Shown: positions 4,716 through 60,866 of the stretch, one piece after another
Position numbering within the stretch: position 1 is the first letter of the stretch
Layout: each line of letters starts with the position of its first letter
Assembly (NCBI GenBank): GCA_965261505.1
Contig: OZ253448.1
Coordinates: forward strand, 394,807-458,806
Origin: Mycoplasmatales bacterium
GTDB lineage: Bacteria > Bacillota_I > Bacilli_A > Mycoplasmatales > Mycoplasmataceae
DNA: 64,000 bases
Direction: 5' to 3'
Made by a program: the position numbers and the translations under genes
The notes under the pieces: generated by a model
The model's database searches: none
What the model saw: the letters and a program-made list of their open reading frames with translations, nothing else
What the model was told of the DNA's origin: nothing

Positions 4716-5399
4716 TTAAAATGTTATTACTATCCCTTTGATTAAATCACTTGGATTATCAGGATTTTTAAATTTATTAAATTTAGTCAAAGTTAATTCT
4801 ACACTTTTTTCAATCTTTAACCGAGAATTCTTATTAAACAATTCATATGTTTTAAGACTCATCAAAACTTTGACCTTTTTTAATTCAATTTTGAAGTCCT
4901 CAAGATATTTAAAAACCCTGCAAGGATGATCAATAATCCACATACCTCTTACTCTCAATGATGTTATTTTTAAAGGATCTAGATTTTTAAAATTTGCAAT
5001 TTCGTTTGTTTTTAATGATTCTAATGATGTATTTATATTGTTTTTTATTTTACTTTTAAAAGAATTATAAATAAATGATGATGCAGCATATAAAAGTCCA
5101 TCTAAAATTCATAAATCCTTTATTTTATTATCTATAACCCTACCAATAACATACATAAAAGGTATTTTTTTATCACCAATAATTTCTTTACATTTTTTGG
5201 TAATTCTTACATTATCTGTTGCTTTTAAACTTTGTTCAGGAAAAGAACTATTAAGATGAATTATAGATGTAGAATTAGTCTTTTTAATCTCAAAAGCAAT
5301 TTTTGGTGTTCTTGATATACAGTCTGGAGGATGATTAGCAGTACCTTGATAACATCACGCATCAGATAAAGAAATATAATCTGCCTTCCCAGCCAACAT
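4716..5399 (-). CDS. Candidate type II restriction endonuclease, PD-(D/E)xK
   Basis: Track ORF 4716..4958 extends upstream through TGA codons to ATG 5399 (684 nt). Contains HPPDCIS..(11 aa)..FEIKK, a PD...ExK arrangement. Sits immediately downstream of the m5C methyltransferase on the same strand. Confidence 0.6.
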
Positions 5400-5471
5400 T
5401 AATTTAAAAAAAGCTTCTAAACCAGTCCAATTTCTTGAATTTTATTTTTATAATTACCTACTGGTTCTTCA

Positions 5472-6512
5472 TTAATTAAAAAAGATTGATTCTTTGCTAG
5501 AATTACTAAGCTCTCTAAAAGGTTCATGTTGTAATTTTAGTTTTTTTAATATACTTTTAGCAATTATTTTAGCAAGTTCTACTGGAACAGCATTCCCTAC
5601 CATCTTATAACCGTCGTTTATTTTTTGATAATAAAAAATAAAATCCTTAGGAAAAGTTTGAATATTAGCACACTCCCTTACACTAAGTCTTCTATAAAAA
5701 TTAATTTTACTTTTAACAAAAATAAATTTATTGTTATTTACTTTAATCATCCTAGGTGCTTGTGGATGAAGAGGGGCATGTCTACCACTTGCTTGAATTG
5801 TAAAAGATGGTTCATCATAACCCCTTACTCTATTGCGTGACATATAAATAGAAGAAAAATTTCCAATCATATATTCATTGTTGTTAATTGATGCGGGATT
5901 ATGATAATTTTTATCTAAAGCAGCAACAGGCTTGATAGCATCGTTCAAAACATCTTTTAATAATTTTTTATTATTTTGTTTTTTAGGGAATTCATATTTT
6001 ACATTCATTTCTTGCTTAAAACCAATTAAAAAAACTCTTTTTCGTGTCTGTGCTACCCCAAAATCATTAGCGTTTATTAAATTTAAAAAGTAATCGTACC
6101 CATATTCATTAATTTTATTTTTAAATCAATTTAAAAATTTATCATGCTTTTGGAATAAAATTCCTCTCACATTTTCTATTACAAAAAATAAAGGTTTTTT
6201 ATGTTTTAAAATTTTTAAAAAGGTAAAAAATAATTCCCCTCTTTCATCATCTATTCCTTTTTGAGTCCCTGCTTCACTTCAAGATTGGCAAGGAATACCA
6301 GCAATGATGCCATCACAATCAGGGATATCATCAATTTTAATATTATTGATATTTTTTTTATTTAAAAAAGTGTTTGGATGATTTGCCTGATATGTTTCTC
6401 AAATAGCTGGATCAAATTCATTAGCCCAAATAACATTAAATCCTGCTTGTTTAAATCCTAAATCAAGTCCTCCACATCCACTAAATAAAGATACTATTTT
6501 ATGTTTTTGCAT
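5472..6512 (-). CDS. DNA (cytosine-5)-methyltransferase, M.HaeIII-like
   Basis: [20 protein letters not shown] (motif I), GIPCQSWS (IV), ENV (VI), QTRKRVF (VIII), GNAVP (X). The TRD (..[41 protein letters not shown]..) resembles M.HaeIII as I recall it. Track ORF 5472..6008 extends through TGAs to ATG 6512. Confidence 0.93.
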
Positions 6513-11137: not shown

Positions 11138-11422
11138 TGTATGATTTTATAGTTTTGTTAACTTAATTTTTGATAAGAAGTTTAGTCATAAAAGATTATC
11201 CTTCTTACAAACCTCAGAAATATATCATAAAAGATAAAATTAAGCAAGTTTTGCTTTTATAGGACTGAAATCATCTTAATAAATTTAAGTAAAAAGGCAT
11301 GTAAACTAAGTTAATGTGCCTAATTATTCAAAGGAAATTAATTAAAGAATTTAACTATATTTATATAAATAAATTAAAATAAAAAAAATTACTTTTAAAA
11401 TATGGAAATTAATTTATGAAAC

Positions 11423-12406
11423 ATGAATAACCCTTTAAAATTTATTGATTTATTTGCAGGTATTGGTGGATTAGGATTGCCTTTTAGAGAATTAGGAATG
11501 AAATGTGTTTTTAGTTCTGAAATTGATAAATTTGCTTGTCTAACATATGAAGCTAATTTTCATGAAAAACCTTTAGGAGATATTAAAAAAATTAATATTA
11601 AAGATATTCCTGATCATGATTTATTATTAGCAGGATTCCCTTGTCAACCTTTTAGTATGATAGGGCAAAGACAAGGATTTAATGATCAAAAAAAAGGTAA
11701 TTTATTTTTTTATTTATTAAACATTCTTAAAAATAAACAACCAAAAGCTTTTTTATTAGAAAATGTACCAGGCATTAAAAGCATAAATAAAGGAAAAACC
11801 TTCATTTTAATTAAACATTTATTAAATGAAGTAGGTTATGATCTTTTTATTTTAGAGGAAGATGCTAAAGATTATGGTCTTCCTCAAAGACGTAAACGAA
11901 TTTATTTTATTGGTTTTAGAAAAGGCTTAAAAATAAATTTTACTTATCTTAGACCTATTTTTGAAGAAGCATATATTGGTTCCTTCATAGAAGAAAATAA
12001 AACTGGATATGCTTTATCAAATAACATAATTAAAAATTATTTATTTAAAAAACATGATTCAAAACCAGAAATTGTTGATACAAACAGCGAAAAACAAATC
12101 AAAACTTTTGTAGCAAGCTATCATAAAATTCAAAGACTTACTGGAACTTTTGTAAATGATCATGGAAAAATAAGGTTATTAAGTGAAAACGAATGTAAAT
12201 CCTTAATGGGCATTCCTAGAAGTTTTATTTTTCCTGTTTCAAGAACTCAGATGTACAGACAAATAGGAAATAGTGTAGCAATACCAGTTGTAAGAGCAAT
12301 AGCCAATAAAATTAACTATTTTTTAAAAACTTTACAAAATGACAAAAGCAGAAAAAATTATCCAAAATATTCTTCAAGAGAATCCAGAATTCAAAAAAGT
12401 GCATAA
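11423..12406 (+). CDS. DNA (cytosine-5)-methyltransferase
   Basis: FIDLFAGIGGLG (I), GFPCQPFS (IV), ENV (VI), QRRKRIY (VIII), GNSVAIPV (X). Intact 327 aa ORF. Confidence 0.93.
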   Translation: MNNPLKFIDLFAGIGGLGLPFRELGMKCVFSSEIDKFACLTYEANFHEKPLGDIKKINIKDIPDHDLLLAGFPCQPFSMIGQRQGFNDQKKGNLFFYLLNILKNKQPKAFLLENVPGIKSINKGKTFILIKHLLNEVGYDLFILEEDAKDYGLPQRRKRIYFIGFRKGLKINFTYLRPIFEEAYIGSFIEENKTGYALSNNIIKNYLFKKHDSKPEIVDTNSEKQIKTFVASYHKIQRLTGTFVNDHGKIRLLSENECKSLMGIPRSFIFPVSRTQMYRQIGNSVAIPVVRAIANKINYFLKTLQNDKSRKNYPKYSSRESRIQKSA

Positions 12407-12917
12407 CCCATCTGACTTTGTTAATGAATGTTATCAATTTTATTTAAAAAAATATAACACCTCTAATAACTTGAATGGTTTAGTATTTGAACAAATCATT
12501 ATTAATTGTTTGCTGAATTGAGATATAAAAATATTTTATACACAAGCTAAATTAACTTTTATACCAAATATAATTTATGATTTAGTTTTATATAACAGAA
12601 CAACTCCAGTTATTTTAAGTTTTAAAACATCATTACGCGAAAGATGAAAACAAGCAGATTTAGAAGGGATGGCATTTAAAAATGTTTATAGAAAAGGAAT
12701 AGTATATCTCATAAATTATTCTAAAAAAGAAAATCTCACAAGAAATAAAAAAAATGATCAAAATTTTGCCATTGATCAATTTATTTATGCTGGCGGAAAT
12801 GATTTTAATCATTTAATTAAAAAATTGAAAACTATATCTTTTTATGAATGTGAAAAAATACATGTTTTTCAAAAATTTATAGAATATAAAAATACAAGGA
12901 AATCATCTAAAGTATAA
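12339..12917 (+). CDS. Candidate type II restriction endonuclease
   Basis: Track ORFs 12339..12521 and 12669..12917 share a frame and join through two TGAs (579 nt). Contains ..YDLVLYNRTTPVILSFKTSLRERWKQ.., a nuclease-like D...xK plus (S/T)xRERWKQ signature. Overlaps the methyltransferase 3' end by 68 nt. Confidence 0.6.
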
Positions 12918-14834: not shown

Positions 14835-16073
14835 TTAATTGTAAGATCCTTGCTTAGGAATAGTAAAACCTAATAAATTTTCATAAATAGTAAAGAATTG
14901 CTGTTTTAAACTTTTACTAACTAGTTTTTGTTGTGTTAATTGTTTATTTATTGCCTTTACTAAACTACCTAAAACTGTTAAGGCATTAGCAGTGTTAAGA
15001 TTATCAGCTAAATGATCTTCTACTTGACTAACATAAGCTTTTGTTGTGTTAATATTTTCAATTTCAATGTTTAATAAGGTTTGAGCTAGTTTTTCTCATT
15101 TATGCATAGTCTTAAGGGCTTGTTGTACTAATACTTCTGAGACATTAAGAGCTAAGCTATATCTACTATTGAGAAAAATAAACCTTAAAACATTAGCAGA
15201 ATAGTCTTCTATAAATTGATGTAGCATTCAAGTGTTTTTAAGTGATTTGCTCATTTTAACTTGTTCTACTTTTAAATGCCCATTATAAATTCATATTTTA
15301 GCTAAATCTACCTTATTAGCAGCAATATATTGGATCCTTTCGTTTTCATGGTGAGGAAATTTAAGATCAATCCCTCCTGCATGAATGTCAAGAGTTTGCC
15401 CTTTATAAAAAAGGTTATTTAAAACACAACATTCTGTATGCCATCCAGGTCGACCTTTACCTCATGGGGAATCAAACTTAACTCCCTGACTTGTTTTTTT
15501 TCACAAAATGAAGTCCCAGTAATTTTTTTTAGCCTTGTATTCCGCTTCAGAAAGGCGACCTTGGTGGGCTTGTAAATTTTTATGTGCTAACATATTATAT
15601 GCTAAGGGTGGAGTGCTATTAATGTATTGCTTTGTGTCAAAATAAACATTTCCTTCATTAACATAAGCTTTTTTGTGAGTTACTAATTCTGCTATAAAGT
15701 CAATTTGTTCTTGAATGTAATCACTAACCCTTGGTAAAAAATTAGGTTTTATAATGTTTAGTTTGGTTTGGTTATTCATAAAAGACTTAAGATAAAAATC
15801 AGAAATTGCTTTTTCTGTTTTATTTTCTGCTAAAGCACGGTTAATAATTTTATCATCAATGTCTGTAATGTTTTGCAAATATTGAAAAGGTTGTTTTTGG
15901 TAGGTTAACAAGCGCACAATAATATCTATCACAAGTAAGGGGATAGCATTCCCAATATGAATATCATCATAAACAGTAGGACCACAAGCAAAAATTTTAA
16001 TAGCTTTAGCTTTGTTATAAGCAACTTCTTGCTTAGTTGCCGTTAAGGTGTCGTAAAGAATAAGCTTTTTCAT
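14835..16073 (-). CDS. cysS: Cysteine--tRNA ligase
   Basis: N-terminus ..[14 protein letters not shown].. (HIGH-type motif). Track ORF 15501..16073 extends through several TGAs to TAA 14835-14837 (1239 nt, in frame). Confidence 0.9.
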
Positions 16074-16240
16074 AAAAAAATAAAAACTTTTATATTGATT
16101 AATTATATGTTTATAAAAATTAAAAATTAAAAAATTAAAGCAAAAAATTAAAGCAAAAGGGCTAATATTTTTTTATAAAAAAAGTTAAAAAAATAAAATT
16201 AAATTGTAAATTAATTATTAACTTAAAGGAAATTACTCTT

Positions 16241-16321
16241 ATGTGCGACTGCAAAAAAGACTGTAAATGCGAATGCGGTAAAAAATGTTCTGAATGCGAC
16301 TGCGATAGCAAATGCAAATAG
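16241..16321 (+). CDS. 26-aa cysteine-rich (9 Cys) metallothionein-like micro-protein
   Basis: atg tgc gac tgc aaa aaa gac tgt aaa tgc gaa tgc ggt aaa aaa tgt tct gaa tgc gac tgc gat agc aaa tgc aaa tag gives MCDCKKDCKCECGKKCSECDCDSKCK. aaagga lies 9-14 nt upstream and a perfect 13-bp terminator hairpin 21 nt downstream. Below the ORF-track size cut-off. Confidence 0.5.
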   Translation: MCDCKKDCKCECGKKCSECDCDSKCK

Positions 16322-16341
16322 TTATTTCACTAAAAAACATT

Positions 16342-16373
16342 AAAAACCTTTTTCTATTTAGAAAAAGGTTTTT
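16342..16373. terminator. Bidirectional rho-independent terminator
   Basis: aaaaacctttttc / tattta / gaaaaaggttttt is a perfect 13-bp stem. It lies between the convergent micro-ORF (+) and the mob gene (-). Confidence 0.6.
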
Positions 16374-16393
16374 ATTACATTATAAAAAGAAGC

Positions 16394-17464
16394 TTACAAA
16401 TAAAATTTTTTCTTTTTTCTTAAATAACGGAGCCTGTATTCTGCATACCTAAAGTCTTTTTTAGTGTAACCTATATTTAAAAACCTTTGTTTGTTAGCCA
16501 TAATAAAATCATAATCACGACGCATTCAAATTTCCAAATTTAACTTTCTTAGTTTAGACATGTTTTTTCTAATCATTCTTTTTTCTAATCTATCTTTAGT
16601 CAAAGTAAGACGCTTGACATTTTTTTCTAAGCAAGCAATTTTAAAATCTAATAAATTATAATATTCTTTAGTCTTCCTTTTAAAAGCAACTGGCACATGC
16701 AAGTCATAACGATATAAAAGCTTTTTGTTATAGACTTTTAAATAATCTTCTTGTAGCTCATGTAAAAACTCTCTTTTACGTCATGCTTCAGGGTTAGAAA
16801 AATCATAGCGTAAACCTTTAGTGCGTTTATCATATTTAAATTGAAACCTTAAATAATGAAAATGAATGTGCGGGTTGTTTTCATCAAGATGGAGCATCGC
16901 CCCAATAAAATTATTTTTCCCGTATGATTTTGCTATTCTTTGATAAGCCCATTCATAGATAGTATTAGCTCATATGTTTAATTTAGTTTTATCCAATACC
17001 TCAAAGCCGTGCTTGTTGTTAACTTTAATAATTTTATTTTGCACAAACCAGTCACGAGAAACAGACATAATTCACTCTCCTACTGGTTGCTTTTTACACA
17101 TGTATTGTGCAAAAGAACGAGTTTTAGTGTAAGCATGCTGTTTAATGTATTTATCATTTTGGCTATCTAGTTGTTGTTTCACTAAATGAAGCATAGTTTT
17201 ATACTTATAAAGAAACTCGTCATAACGCTTTTGACGATCCTCTCGACTATGATAACCCTCTCATGTCTTTTGCCCGCTTCAAATAATCCTGTTAAGATGA
17301 GTTTTCTGTGGGTCAATATCATGCACTGGGTTTTCTTTGGCTGTTAAACGCATAGCGTGTTTCACCAACCCTTCCGCTGCTTTGATTCCTGTTCCAATAC
17401 TTTTACTTCTTCCTTTGCTTTTAGTTATCACTAAAATAGGAGAACAACATTGCTGTTTTTTCAT
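16394..17464 (-). CDS. MobV/Pre-family relaxase (plasmid recombination enzyme)
   Basis: Motif I HxxR (VKHAMR) and motif III HxDExxPHxH (HLDENNPHIH). Track ORF 17279..17545 extends through TGAs to TAA 16394-16396. Start set at ATG 17464 (MKKQQ..). Confidence 0.85.
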
Positions 17465-17469
17465 TTTTT

Positions 17470-17485
17470 TTACTTTTAAAAGTAA
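17470..17485. promoter_or_regulatory. 16-nt perfect palindrome just upstream of mob
   Basis: ttacttttaaaagtaa lies 6 nt upstream of ATG 17464. Candidate operator or oriT-associated repeat. Confidence 0.3.
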
Positions 17486-17528
17486 TTTAAAAAAAACAAG
17501 CAATTTCCTTTTAAAAATAAGCAAAATA

Positions 17529-17549
17529 AAACTTGCTTTTAGCAAGTTT
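17529..17549 (-). terminator. Hairpin terminator downstream of the ECF-S-like gene
   Basis: aaacttgct / ttt / agcaagttt is a 9-bp stem. On the minus strand a T-rich tract follows. Confidence 0.45.
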
Positions 17550-17572
17550 AAAAAACATGATCAAAAGAAACC

Positions 17573-18490
17573 TTAATCCTTATCAATTAAAGGTCGCACC
17601 GCTCGGTACACCACATAAATAATAGCAGTGTTAATAAAAATTTTTCCAGGAGCCATCACTAGTCTAGCAATCATAGTAATCGCATATCCCCCACTACTAA
17701 TTCCTTGGGACGCACTTAGAAAGGCAATATCCCCTCAAGAAGAAATCAGGGTGGTAACTCAGTATTCAGTAATGGTAGCAAGGACAATAATCGGAAGCAT
17801 TTTGCGTCATTGGTTTCTTTTGGTTGCAGTTCAAATAAAGTAAAGAAAGGTGAGCCATAAAATCGCTAAAGTAGTGCCAGTTCCCAGCCCTACTAATCAT
17901 ACTACTTCACTTGCAGGAACAAAAATACCTGCAAAAAGTTTAATCCCTCCGTGTGTAATTGGATAGTAATATACCATGCTAATCGCATAAGCTCCAAAAG
18001 CAATCACAAAAGCGTTAATAAAAAACATAATAACTCATTTTTGTTTTCCTACTACTCTATCTAAAGAGCCCATACAACCAGACAAAAAGCCAAAAGAAGC
18101 AATCACAATTAAATAGGCAATATGAATGTAAGAAGGAACAAATAAGATACAAATTAAATCAGTAAGCGTTCCAGACATAAAACCTACAATTGGTCCAAAA
18201 ATAAAGCCAGCAATTTTAACCATAATTCCTTCAAACGCAATTCTGACAGGTGGAAAGACAGTAATCGGGAAGACTTTTGATACTACTACTGTCACAGTAA
18301 CAGAAACAGAAGTTAAAAGCGCAATGTATGAAATATTACGAGTGGTAAAACGAATCCCATGGTACCGATCAGGATGGTGCACATAAACATACCCGTTATA
18401 ACAACAATAAATAACAAACATGATTCCGACTACGCCAGAAGCAATGTAAGCCATATAGTTAGAAAAGAAAATGTGACTTAAAGTATGCAT
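17573..18490 (-). CDS. Polytopic membrane protein, ECF transporter S-component-like
   Basis: Track ORF 18035..18490 extends through TGAs to TAA 17573-17575 (918 nt). Multiple TM helices and a ..KIAGFIFGPIVGFMSGTLTDLI.. segment typical of ECF substrate-binding components. Confidence 0.6.
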
Positions 18491-38105: not shown

Positions 38106-38756
38106 ATGGAAAAAATTATGAAAGTTTTAATTAATTTCGGAAGCACTCGTAGTTACATAGATCCTGTTCGTTTTTTAACTAATGCTTCTTCTGGTAAAAC
38201 AGGGATTCTTTTAGCTTATGCTTTAGAAGACTGTTATTTTAATGTTAAGGCGATTGTAGGAGATGCAAAAGTTAACCTTAAAAAACTTAATTATGAAAGA
38301 GCCTACACAAATGAGGCTATGCTTAAGGCTATGCAAAAAGAAATTAACGAAGCTGATGTTGTAATTTTTTGTGCTGCTATAGCTGATTACAAACCACAAG
38401 TCTTTTCTGAGCAAAAAATTCAAAAGGCTCAATATCCTAACCTTAATATTAAATTAGAGCCTAATTTAAACATCATAGGTGAGTTAGCTAAAAATAAAAA
38501 AACTCATCAAATATGAATAGGTTTTAGTTGCCAAGAAGACTGATCAATCACAACAGCTTATCAAAAGCTAATAAATTCAAGCTTAGATTACTTATTAATT
38601 AACCTCAGAAATGTAATTAACAGTCATAACACCCATCTTAAAATGATTAATTCGCAAAAAACTATTTTATGAGAAAAGCAAGGACCTAAAAAAGAAGTTA
38701 TGCCTGAATTAGCTTATTATATAAAAGAACTTCTTCAAAAAAATAGTTATGAGTAA
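38106..38756 (+). CDS. coaB: Phosphopantothenate--cysteine ligase (stand-alone CoaB)
   Basis: ..DPVRFLTNASSGKTG.. and ..AAIADYKP.. CoaB motifs. Continues through TGAs to TAA 38754-38756. Confidence 0.78.
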
Positions 38757-58700: not shown

Positions 58701-59204
58701 TTAATCCCCTTCAATGTAAAAAGGACGAGGGTGATCTTTTGTAAATCCTAGTATTGGTAAATACATTTCACTAAGGGTAGGCTTATTATAAATAATTGTT
58801 ACTGGTTTATAAGAAACATAAGGAATTAGTGACTCCACAAGTCCCCCCATATTACTTCACTCTTGATTTAAAGTTGAAGTTACTAGATCGCTCTTCCAAT
58901 CAGAGGGTGGCATTTGCTTTCTACCTGCAATATTAATTATAAGAGGATCTGTTTTAGAAGCATGTGACGGGTCATCTAAAAATTTTTTTTGGGGACTATA
59001 GTCTATAACTAATTTTTCAGCAAATTTTACTTTAATATCTGGAATTATTATAGCAGGTATTATTTTATTTTCTTTAATAGGGTTTTCTATAGGATAAAGA
59101 GGAATAGGAGGCTCTTTCTTTTCGCTACAACCACTAACAACATTAGCTAAAGGACTAAAAAGTGCTATAACAGTTATTAAAGATAAAATTTTTCTCATAA
59201 TCAT
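58701..59204 (-). CDS. Small lipoprotein, array copy 1
   Basis: MIMRKILSLITVIALFSPLANVVSGC. Track ORF 58857..59204 reads through TGA to TAA 58701. C-terminus ..WSNMGGLVESLIPYVSYKPVTIIYNKPTLSEMYLPILGFTKDHPRPFYIEGD. 167 aa. Confidence 0.85.
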
Positions 59205-59255
59205 TTTTAATTAAATTAACATAGTTTATTAAATTATATAAAAAACTAAAATAAT

Positions 59256-59735
59256 TTACTCCCCATAGATGTAAAAATATCGAGGGCGGTCTTTTGTAAA
59301 ACCTAATATCGGTAAATACATTTCACAAAGAACCAAGTGGTTAGGAACAATTGTAACAGGTTTAAAGCTTACTAGAGGATATAACTCTGTACTTAGCCCT
59401 CCTAGTGATCTTCATACATCCTTTAAATCTTCAGCTACATTATCTTTAGGTCAATCCTTTGCTAAAATAGCCTCAGAATTATGAATAAGGTATGGTATAG
59501 GTGATTGTTGTGAACCATTTAAAGGATTATTTAAAACTTTTTTTTCAGAACTATAGGTTCTAACTAATGTAATAGCATATTTTGTTTTAATGTCTGGAAT
59601 TATTATAGCAGTTTCTTTAATAGGATATGGAGGTACATAAGGTAATTGCTTTTCGTTACAACTACTAACAACACTAGCCAAAGGGCTAAAAAAGGCTATA
59701 ACAGTTATTAAAGATAAAATTTTTCTCATAATCAT
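59256..59735 (-). CDS. Small lipoprotein, array copy 2
   Basis: ..VVSSCNEKQLPYVPPYPIKE.. Reads through two TGAs to ..VLCEMYLPILGFTKDRPRYFYIYGE. 159 aa. Confidence 0.85.
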
Positions 59736-59783
59736 TTTTAATTAGATGAACATAGTTTATTACATTATATAAAAACAAACAAT

Positions 59784-60287
59784 TTAATCACCTTCAATGT
59801 AAAAAGGGCGTGGATTCGCTTTTGTAAAACCTAACAAAGGAAGATACATTTCACTCTTGGTAGGTTGATTATAAATGATTGTTACTGGTTTATAAGAAAC
59901 ATAAGGGATTAGTGAATCTACAAGTCCTCCAAGATCGCTTCAATCTAGATTTAATAGCGTAATTATTTGCTTTATCTGTCATTCAGAAGGCAGAATTTGT
60001 TTGTTAAATCCTACAGAAATTGTGATAGGGTCTGTTTTAGAGACATTTGAGAAGTCATCCAAAAAATTTTTTTGAGGGCTATAATCTATAACTAATTTTT
60101 CAGCAAATTTTACTTTAATATCTGGAATTATTATAGCAGGTATTATTTTATTTTCTTTAATAGGGTTTTCTATAGGATAAAGAGGAATAGGAGGCTCTTT
60201 CTTTTCGCTACAACCACTAACAACATTAGCTAAAGGACTAAAAAGTGCTATAACAGTTATTAAAGATAAAATTTTTCTCATAATCAT
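59784..60287 (-). CDS. Small lipoprotein, array copy 3
   Basis: N-terminal half identical to copy 1, distal half different. C-terminus ..KSEMYLPLLGFTKANPRPFYIEGD. 167 aa. Confidence 0.85.
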
Positions 60288-60338
60288 TTTTAATTAAATT
60301 AACATAGTTTATTAAATTATATAAAAAACTAAAATAAT

Positions 60339-60818
60339 TTACTCCCCATAGATGTAAAAATATCGAGGGCGGTCTTTTGTAAAACCTAATATCGGTAAAT
60401 ACATTTCACAAAGAACCAAGTGGTTAGGAACAATTGTAACAGGTTTAAAGCTTACTAGAGGATATAACTCTGTACTTAGCCCTCCTAGTGATCTTCATAC
60501 ATCCTTTAAATCTTCAGCTACATTATCTTTAGGTCAATCCTTTGCTAAAATAGCCTCAGAATTATGAATAAGGTATGGTATAGGTGATTGTTGTGAACCA
60601 TTTAAAGGATTATTTAAAACTTTTTTTTCAGAACTATAGGTTCTAACTAATGTAATAGCATATTTTGTTTTAATGTCTGGAATTATTATAGCAGTTTCTT
60701 TAATAGGATATGGAGGTACATAAGGTAATTGCTTTTCGTTACAACTACTAACAACACTAGCCAAAGGGCTAAAAAAGGCTATAACAGTTATTAAAGATAA
60801 AATTTTTCTCATAATCAT
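60339..60818 (-). CDS. Small lipoprotein, array copy 4 (identical to copy 2)
   Basis: Offset exactly 1083 bp from copy 2 with an identical translated ORF. Confidence 0.85.
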
Positions 60819-60866
60819 TTTTAATTAGATGAACATAGTTTATTACATTATATAAAAACAAACAAT

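Follow-up and report, generated by a model that had tools for sequence, protein, structure and literature searches.

This report concerns a cysteine-rich open reading frame (ORF) of 26 codons, referred to as the mini-ORF, in a 64,000-nt stretch of contig OZ253448.1 of a Mycoplasmatales bacterium; the whole of this stretch is called the window. The mini-ORF lies on the plus strand, with cysS, the gene for cysteine--tRNA ligase (CysRS), diverging from it on one side and a plasmid-type relaxase gene (mobV) converging on it on the other. An earlier note, made from the sequence alone, had singled it out as an unannotated gene for a metallothionein-like peptide, and the mini-ORF is confirmed here as a real feature that the note described accurately. 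What the note did not give was part of the context: the mini-ORF and the relaxase gene together form a 1.5-kb insertion, and the flank opposite the relaxase gene is the divergent cysS, 167 nt away. The mini-ORF and its immediate signals are the following:

16241..16321 (+): cysteine-rich mini-ORF, 26 codons plus stop; product MCDCKKDCKCECGKKCSECDCDSKCK, with 9 Cys, 7 Lys, 4 Asp and 2 Glu; 2.92 kDa
16253..16306 (+): tandem duplication, in frame, of 9 codons (27 nt), KKDCKCECG / KKCSECDCD, 74% identity
16225..16230 (+): Shine-Dalgarno (SD)-like AAAGGA, its AAGGA core 10 nt before the ATG
16172..16199 (+): candidate promoter, TTTATA, 16-nt spacer, TAAAAT; implied 5' untranslated region of about 35 nt
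16341..16374 (no strand): perfect hairpin, 16-nt arms (16341-16356 and 16359-16374), 2-nt loop, T-runs on both strands

Composition and coding signals of the mini-ORF

The mini-ORF runs from an ATG at 16241 to a TAG at 16319-16321, with no earlier in-frame start, and its codons are ATG TGC GAC TGC AAA AAA GAC TGT AAA TGC GAA TGC GGT AAA AAA TGT TCT GAA TGC GAC TGC GAT AGC AAA TGC AAA TAG. The nine cysteines, at residues 2, 4, 8, 10, 12, 16, 19, 21 and 25, make up 35% of the peptide (9/26) and are spaced as four C-x-C, one C-x-x-C and three C-x3-C, in agreement with the C-x-C and C-x-x-C clusters reported earlier. Lys, Asp and Glu serve as linkers, there are no aromatic residues and no His, the mass is 2,924 Da, and inspection of the peptide revealed neither a signal peptide nor a hydrophobic core. 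Among the 995 window ORFs of at least 15 codons it is the top cysteine outlier, with 9/26 against 4/15 for the second; no other 26-codon stretch, in any frame of the window, contains more than 7 Cys, and 30 shuffles gave 5-7. Indeed, 9 of the 10 TGY triplets inside the 81 nt are in frame. The tandem duplication of the 27-nt unit suggests that the peptide grew by internal duplication.

All this occurs in a genome where cysteine is scarce. The host is a mollicute, long ORFs being obtained only when TGA is read as Trp, with a GC content of 30% and a genome-wide Cys content of 0.9% of residues. The source organism represents an isolated lineage: after the self-match, the next-best CysRS matches reach 47% identity and come from marine and coral metagenome contigs, followed by Spiroplasma, Mesoplasma and Mycoplasma. 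The mini-ORF peptide and the three ORFs overlapping it are absent from a collection of 15 billion proteins that does include the adjoining CysRS and MobV from the 986-kb source contig; the region was therefore left uncalled, which is consistent with the ORF having been described as unannotated. The default minimum gene length of Prodigal is 90 nt and the mini-ORF measures 81 nt, and we see in it a concrete case of a small ORF overlooked by gene callers.

The indications that the mini-ORF is translated are stronger than the case made for it in the earlier note, and they are of three kinds: (i) Base composition. The mini-ORF is an island of 35-40% GC, a coding-like composition, amid a spacer of 8-12% GC; its own value is 39.5%, versus 10.8% in the 167 nt upstream, which bears out the earlier remark on its GC-richness. 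(ii) Codon bias. Seven of the nine Cys codons are TGC, as had been counted before, and two are TGT, but the preference is wider than this: in the two-fold pyrimidine boxes (Cys, Asp and Ser(AGY)) 11 of 14 codons end in C (0.79) and 3 in T, whereas the NNC fraction of 46 other window genes has a mean of 0.22 and a maximum of 0.38, in the gene for ribosomal protein L9 (P~1e-5). This C-ending bias is not general GC-richness, because the Lys and Glu codons are all A-ending (9/9), as elsewhere in the genome; nor is it a mere mark of recent import, because the codon usage of mobV is host-like (TGC/TGT 1:3, GAC/GAT 5:13, GC3 0.27, NNC fraction below 0.29), and it is thus specific to the mini-ORF. The combination of NNC and NNA codons is usually attributed to selection on translation, and the bias of the mini-ORF is the pattern expected from such selection. 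(iii) A common terminator. The perfect hairpin is equidistant from the two convergent genes, lying 19 nt from the stop of the mini-ORF (16321) and 19 nt from the stop codon of mobV (16394-16396), and is likely a bidirectional terminator common to both. It had been reported as a perfect 13-bp stem 21 nt after the stop; the perfect pairing holds, while the arms are in fact 16 nt long and begin 19 nt after the stop, the 13-bp core lying inside them.

The purine-rich aaagga mentioned in the earlier note is present as the SD-like AAAGGA, and an SD match of at least 4 nt occurs in only 10 of the 48 other window genes, three of which carry AAGGA at a spacing of 8-10 nt; the mini-ORF, with AAGGA at 10 nt, resembles these SD-using genes, which counts in favour of its translation. 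With 36 of 48 window genes having no SD match within 25 nt of the start, about three-quarters of the gene starts, initiation in this organism is therefore mostly SD-independent. The candidate promoter is weak, since promoter-like matches are common in the AT-rich spacer (11 found versus 5.2 expected).

Explanations at the level of nucleic acid are weak, because there is no RNA-structure signal and no Rfam or tRNA match. For either strand of the mini-ORF, folding is no better than that of shuffled sequences (z -0.1 to +0.3), Rfam and ARAGORN returned no match in the mini-ORF region, and a structured RNA or a known RNA family was rejected on these grounds (z about 0 on both strands). In the open antisense frame the C-biased positions would become the third bases of rare TCG, CAG and CCG codons, without any comparable rationale. 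Two antisense ORFs, a His-rich one of 51 aa and one of 33 aa, were rejected: they use these rare G-ending codons, run into the spacer of 10% GC and have no start signals. The antisense frame at 16162-16317 (-), which starts with TTG and reads as a His-rich MHLLSQSHSEHFLPHSHLQSFLQSH..., was judged spurious.

The insertion between cysS and the ECF-S gene

The wider locus comprises the following features:

16074..17572 (no strand): insertion of 1,499 nt that separates the ECF-S gene from cysS; contains mobV with the stretch upstream of it, the hairpin, the mini-ORF and the spacer
16394..17464 (-): relaxase gene of the MobV family, full length (356 aa), converging on the mini-ORF; Pfam Mob_Pre
17459..17531 (no strand): inverted repeat, 30 nt, 80% complementary, directly upstream of mobV; candidate origin of transfer (oriT)
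14835..16073 (-): cysS, cysteine--tRNA ligase, divergent from the mini-ORF
17573..18490 (-): ECF transporter S-component (ECF-S) gene, the ancestral upstream neighbour of cysS
16129..16158 (no strand): 13-nt tandem repeat AAAAAATTAAAGC, 2.3 copies, within the spacer from which cysS and the mini-ORF diverge

Along the minus strand come L9, DnaB, lipoprotein, UDG and ECF-S, then mobV, the hairpin and (on the other strand) the mini-ORF, then cysS and a SpoU methylase gene. The same gene order is found in a 661-kb contig (L001) and in a coral metagenome contig (L264), except that there the stop of the ECF-S gene lies 6-12 nt from the ATG of cysS; orthology is confirmed by blastp at 30-59% identity, with 59% for the ECF-S orthologues. 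L282, a third relative, has a gene overlapping the start of cysS. Since a gene abuts cysS in all three related mollicute contigs, 16074-17572 is inserted DNA. The mini-ORF lies within plasmid-derived DNA and owes its position beside cysS to the insertion. A 14-nt repeat at 16108 and 17629, considered as a target-site duplication, was rejected, its occurrence being estimated at chance level.

The plasmid-type relaxase gene that the earlier note had placed beside the mini-ORF is borne out by a Pfam Mob_Pre score of 38.9 bits (cut-off 25.5; 1e-9) and by the HxDE...PHxH motif, present as HLDENNPHIHFH. With the NCBIfam MobV equivalog the score is only 54 bits, under the cut-off of 100, and the relaxase is therefore a divergent member of MobV. 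An exhaustive HMMER search recovered 12 MobV relatives at 24-36% identity (E <1e-26). The closest, at 33% identity, is found twice (L199 and L200) on a plasmid-like contig of 50 kb, ERZ25067893 ctg26123, which carries ParA, SSB and HNH genes and shares its sample of origin with L001, the chromosome of a related mollicute; another adjoins the genes for a type IV secretion system (T4SS) coupling protein and an ATPase, and relatives of MobV and of CysRS co-occur in one Tara sample (L259 and L282). Neither MobV nor the whole insertion gave a tblastn match in PLSDB, and no rep or integrase gene is found within the 1.5 kb. The oriT of MobV systems normally lies upstream of mob, and the inverted repeat upstream of mobV is a candidate oriT by its position, with no nick site identified in it. 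The 13-nt repeat in the spacer could serve as an operator or could be left over from a plasmid origin.

Could the mini-ORF itself be a DNA-level element of the plasmid remnant, with protein-binding repeats of iteron or operator type and a reading frame that is incidental? Its direct repeats (D4 and D7) would suit such a role, as would its location in plasmid-derived DNA and the choice of C/G bases at the repeat sites, which the amino-acid sequence does not impose; TGCGAMTGC(G) is present in three copies, at 16244, 16268 and 16295. However, they are set 24 and 27 nt apart, distances divisible by 3 and not by the helical repeat, the TGY triplets keep to one frame that comes with an ATG, a stop, an SD sequence and a terminator, there is no rep gene, and the place where a MobV oriT is normally found is occupied by the separate inverted repeat. 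We therefore consider a role as a DNA element very unlikely.

The proximity of the window's most Cys-rich ORF to the gene for the Cys-tRNA ligase raises a different alternative: a regulatory short ORF, in which the speed of the ribosome on nine Cys codons would report the supply of Cys-tRNA(Cys) and alter either termination at the hairpin that follows the stop or, at a distance of 130-170 nt, transcription from the divergent cysS promoter. There is a precedent in mycobacteria, where Cys-rich short ORFs are cysteine-responsive attenuators (bioRxiv 10.1101/834739). Like the mini-ORF, the mycobacterial polycysteine short ORFs are unannotated, rich in Cys codons and located beside a cysteine-related gene; unlike it, they lie upstream of, and in the same direction as, the operon that they regulate, contain consecutive Cys codons and act through RNA structures by which the following ribosome-binding site is masked (bioRxiv 10.1101/834739). 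Here, the mini-ORF is divergent from cysS instead of preceding it on the same strand, and past the hairpin no plus-strand gene is met for about 20 kb, the next real one being at 38106; read-through of the hairpin would run antisense to mobV. Only the terminator hairpin is predicted, with no competing or anti-terminator helix, and the ORF folds no better than shuffles. Its Cys codons, abundant as they are (9/26), are never consecutive; they are mostly TGC, which should pair perfectly by Watson-Crick rules with GCA, the sole tRNA-Cys anticodon, a choice that would favour fast decoding over stalling. Finally, the adjacency to cysS is made by the insertion and is absent in the relatives. Taken together, these points make a regulatory role improbable, and still less credit is due to its most elaborate form, in which a mobile element would have placed a sensor of Cys-tRNA(Cys) charging beside cysS, so that either the transfer of the element or the supply of Cys-tRNA ligase would follow cysteine availability through a divergent attenuation with no leader. 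A tRNA-mimic leader, with antisense GCA triplets mimicking the tRNA-Cys anticodon in the cysS leader, was also considered and rejected for lack of structure. It is unlikely in any case because a perfect minus-strand TATAAT at 16107-16102, inside the inserted DNA and now the only obvious cysS promoter, puts the likely cysS start downstream of the GCA triplets; the spacer that holds it, between cysS and the mini-ORF, is 167 nt long and has 11% GC.

Elsewhere in the window, eight paralogous lipoprotein genes stand in tandem at 58701-63514 (-), alternating between forms of 167/163 aa and 159 aa (MIMRKILSLITVIA...), an array that looks like a variable surface-protein locus. There are also two type II restriction-modification modules, at 4716-6512 (-) and 11402-12917 (+): one pairs an NgoPII-like endonuclease with a C5-cytosine methylase, and the other a second C5-cytosine methylase with an overlapping partner of 192 aa that has no Pfam family.

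Searches for relatives and interpretation

We looked for relatives of the peptide in several collections. Neither Pfam (E<=1) nor NCBIfam (E<=10) assigned it to a family, metallothioneins included, and no chain in the PDB sequences, a library that includes 1JJD, matched at E<=10. A search by shared words, in which the doubled peptide was run against 5.8 billion proteins, gave 8 word-sharing candidates, none of which scored. The earlier note had proposed a tblastn search for CxC-rich micro-ORFs, and tblastn of the peptide against PLSDB and phage records produced no match. Patterns of Cys spacing with charged residues at the C-x-C positions, searched in viral and metagenome contigs, hit CxCx repeats, very small phage ORFs and the Cys-rich tails of proteins otherwise unrelated, with no demonstrable relative; in reference genomes, where the intervening codons were left free, the matches listed included (TGC)n/(TGT)n repeats and off-frame low-complexity DNA, in a search that did not reach the mollicutes.

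These searches brought up other Cys-rich ORFs. Four IMG/VR contigs (L270, L273, L277 and L278) have Cys-rich ORFs of 15-16 codons, MCNCENCNCDCGCCDK, MCDCCGCDCDCNCKCN and MCKCCDCCDCDCGCNC, each preceded by a strong ribosome-binding site, GGAG (two of the ORFs start at L277:1449(+) and L278:11530(+)); they recur beside a conserved gene of 435-473 aa of unknown family in AT-rich marine viral contigs, and look like a conserved family of uncalled CxC micro-peptides. Two more IMG/VR contigs (L271:1873-1941(+) and L281) have an ORF of 22 codons, MMKCNCKMCNCGVSCECNCCTC, with 9 Cys, directly upstream of a 432-aa gene resembling FAD / pyridine-nucleotide-disulfide oxidoreductases (Pfam Pyr_redox_2, 5e-10). 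The IMG/VR ORFs resemble the mini-ORF in starting with MC and in having C-x-C units with Asp, Asn, Lys and Glu, but they are shorter (15-22 residues), use host-typical TGT codons and occur in other genomic contexts; for peptides of such low complexity, homology to the mini-ORF cannot be shown. In five metagenome contigs of about 30% GC (L218, L229, L230, L240 and L255, of which at least L240 is labelled human gut), open frames some 91-105 codons long combine an ordinary domain at the N-terminus with a (CxC)n tail, ...FDDCECDCDCDCDCNCKCNCEECECDCEKCDSHCEDSD, at the C-terminus.

The reading that we favour, to which we give a probability of roughly 0.45, is that the mini-ORF is a translated small gene, carried as mobile-element cargo, whose product is a cytoplasmic, metallothionein-like thiolate-cluster peptide of 2.9 kDa that buffers metal or redox. 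The transcription and translation of the gene, and the metal binding and physiological role of its product, are parts of this reading that we infer. From the AT-rich promoter a monocistronic mRNA of about 170 nt would be made, carrying the AAGGA ribosome-binding site and the 26 codons and ending at the hairpin that would also terminate the convergent relaxase gene. The peptide would be disordered on its own and fold only around a metal-thiolate cluster, and its task would then be the buffering or detoxification of soft metals (Cu(I), Zn, Cd) and, by way of the thiols, of oxidants. Since the 1.5-kb insertion of mobile DNA also carries the MobV relaxase gene, the mini-ORF is most simply plasmid cargo; it would have arrived when a small mobilisable plasmid inserted itself upstream of cysS.

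Several points weigh against the proposal of a functional metallothionein-like gene: (i) no homologue or conserved reading frame turned up in any collection searched, which does not in itself establish absence from other mollicute genomes. (ii) The mini-ORF is known from one genome only. (iii) No Cys-rich, charged mini-ORF is found at the loci of six MobV and five CysRS relatives (for L282, by its gene table only). (iv) Wherever the two internal repeat units differ, the change is non-synonymous, with no hint of purifying selection. (v) Within about 10 kb there is no metal-responsive regulator, no metal transporter or pump, and no thiol enzyme. The earlier designation of the peptide as metallothionein-like thus stands as regards sequence traits and coding signals, and finds no backing in a known family, a homologue or a nearby metal gene. 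The case consists of one genome and indirect signs of translation; its practical value is modest pending expression and a second genome.

The same points bear on the simplest alternative, that the ORF is functionless, a product of chance or a decaying remnant of plasmid cargo, unexpressed or expressed without consequence. It is an orphan in every search and is absent beside the MobV relatives, the element is a remnant, having neither rep nor integrase gene in its 1.5 kb, and short ORFs are frequent. Yet decay at 30% GC should drift towards T-ending codons and stops, and what is found is the strongest C-ending bias of the window next to a mobV of host-like usage, in an intact frame with its SD sequence and terminator in place. 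A functionless ORF is for these reasons unlikely, although it is an explanation to be taken seriously.

Granted a translated gene, its chemistry could be that of thiols instead of metals, the peptide acting as a redox buffer, an oxidant scavenger or a cysteine reserve. Mollicutes in general are not known to have glutathione or to synthesise cysteine. The coding evidence serves this idea equally well, and so do the low Cys content of the genome and the lack of metal genes nearby. On the other side, no thiol-disulfide oxidoreductase gene is adjacent, and nine close thiols would bind soft metals anyway, so that the two roles are hard to separate; we hold a purely thiol-based function to have little probability. 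Less probable by far is the precursor of a ribosomally synthesised and post-translationally modified peptide (RiPP), of thioether, thiazole or metallophore type, which the earlier note had offered as an alternative on the basis of a short Cys-rich peptide. There is no maturase: no radical-SAM, YcaO, LanM/LanB/LanC or MbnB-type gene occurs within about 10 kb, where the neighbours are cysS, SpoU methylase, MobV, ECF-S, UDG, lipoprotein, DnaB, restriction-modification genes and aldolase. Nor is there room for a leader, Cys being present from residue 2, and export genes or signals are missing, which makes a RiPP precursor hardly credible.

Comparison with known metallothioneins

The favoured interpretation, a metallothionein-like peptide, places the mini-ORF beside molecules with which it shares general traits, being under 10 kDa, rich in Cys arranged as C-x-C and C-x-x-C, and free of aromatic residues and His. 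The closest in build are eukaryotic: the copper metallothionein (MT) of Neurospora crassa, whose 25-26 aa include 7 Cys, and the vertebrate MT beta-domain, which has 9 Cys in about 30 aa, agree with the mini-ORF peptide in size, in Cys fraction (27-35%), in the dominance of C-x-C, in short Lys/Ser/Asp linkers and in the absence of aromatics and His. The Cys-to-Cys spacing is of the same style in both, being 2,4,2,2,4,3,2,4 in the mini-ORF and 2,6,2,4,2,3,2,3 in the beta-domain of MT2. The 9-Cys beta-domain of vertebrate MT binds 3 divalent ions and the 7-Cys copper-thionein of Neurospora 6 Cu(I), and by analogy the mini-ORF peptide is predicted to bind roughly three divalent ions, or between four and six Cu(I). 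In contrast to these single-domain MTs, the peptide has no alignable similarity to them and no Pfam metallothionein match, and it belongs to a bacterial host and a mobile-element context.

In bacteria, the characterised metallothioneins named in reviews are only those of the SmtA/BmtA type and MymT (PMC7387436, PMC7558416). MymT of Mycobacterium tuberculosis, a copper metallothionein of 4.9 kDa, was initially a non-annotated ORF (PMC7558416, PMC7387436), and as a precedent for an unannotated small ORF that proved to be a bacterial metallothionein it supports our reading of the mini-ORF (PMC7558416). Both are small unannotated bacterial ORFs for a Cys-rich peptide, cytoplasmic and lineage-restricted, in our case by prediction as to the cytoplasm; MymT differs in being about twice as long (~53 aa), with 13% Cys, His and hydrophobic residues, and in being chromosomal and copper-induced. 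The Cys/His motif and the Cys spacing also differ. SmtA and BmtA, from cyanobacteria and Pseudomonas, are proteins of 50-80 aa whose fold resembles a zinc finger and whose ligands include His (PMC7387436). They share with the mini-ORF peptide its nine Cys and a bacterial origin, the metal-thiolate cluster being a property of SmtA/BmtA that is only predicted here, whereas the peptide, unlike them, has 26 aa, no His, no divergent SmtB repressor gene and no match to Pfam Metallothio_Pro. With no profile match, no His and half the length, it lies outside both the SmtA/BmtA and the MymT families.

In agreement with the earlier note, a literature search found no metallothionein described in mollicutes; the Spiroplasma papers mention host metallothioneins only. 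A Cys-rich metal-binding peptide not homologous to the known ones, in a clade from which no metallothionein has been described, is plausible but unproven. Should the peptide prove to be made and to bind metal, it would rank with the smallest bacterial metallothioneins known, and an organism without a cell wall and of reduced genome, in which cysteine accounts for 0.9% of residues, would carry a metal or thiol buffer on a mobilisable element.

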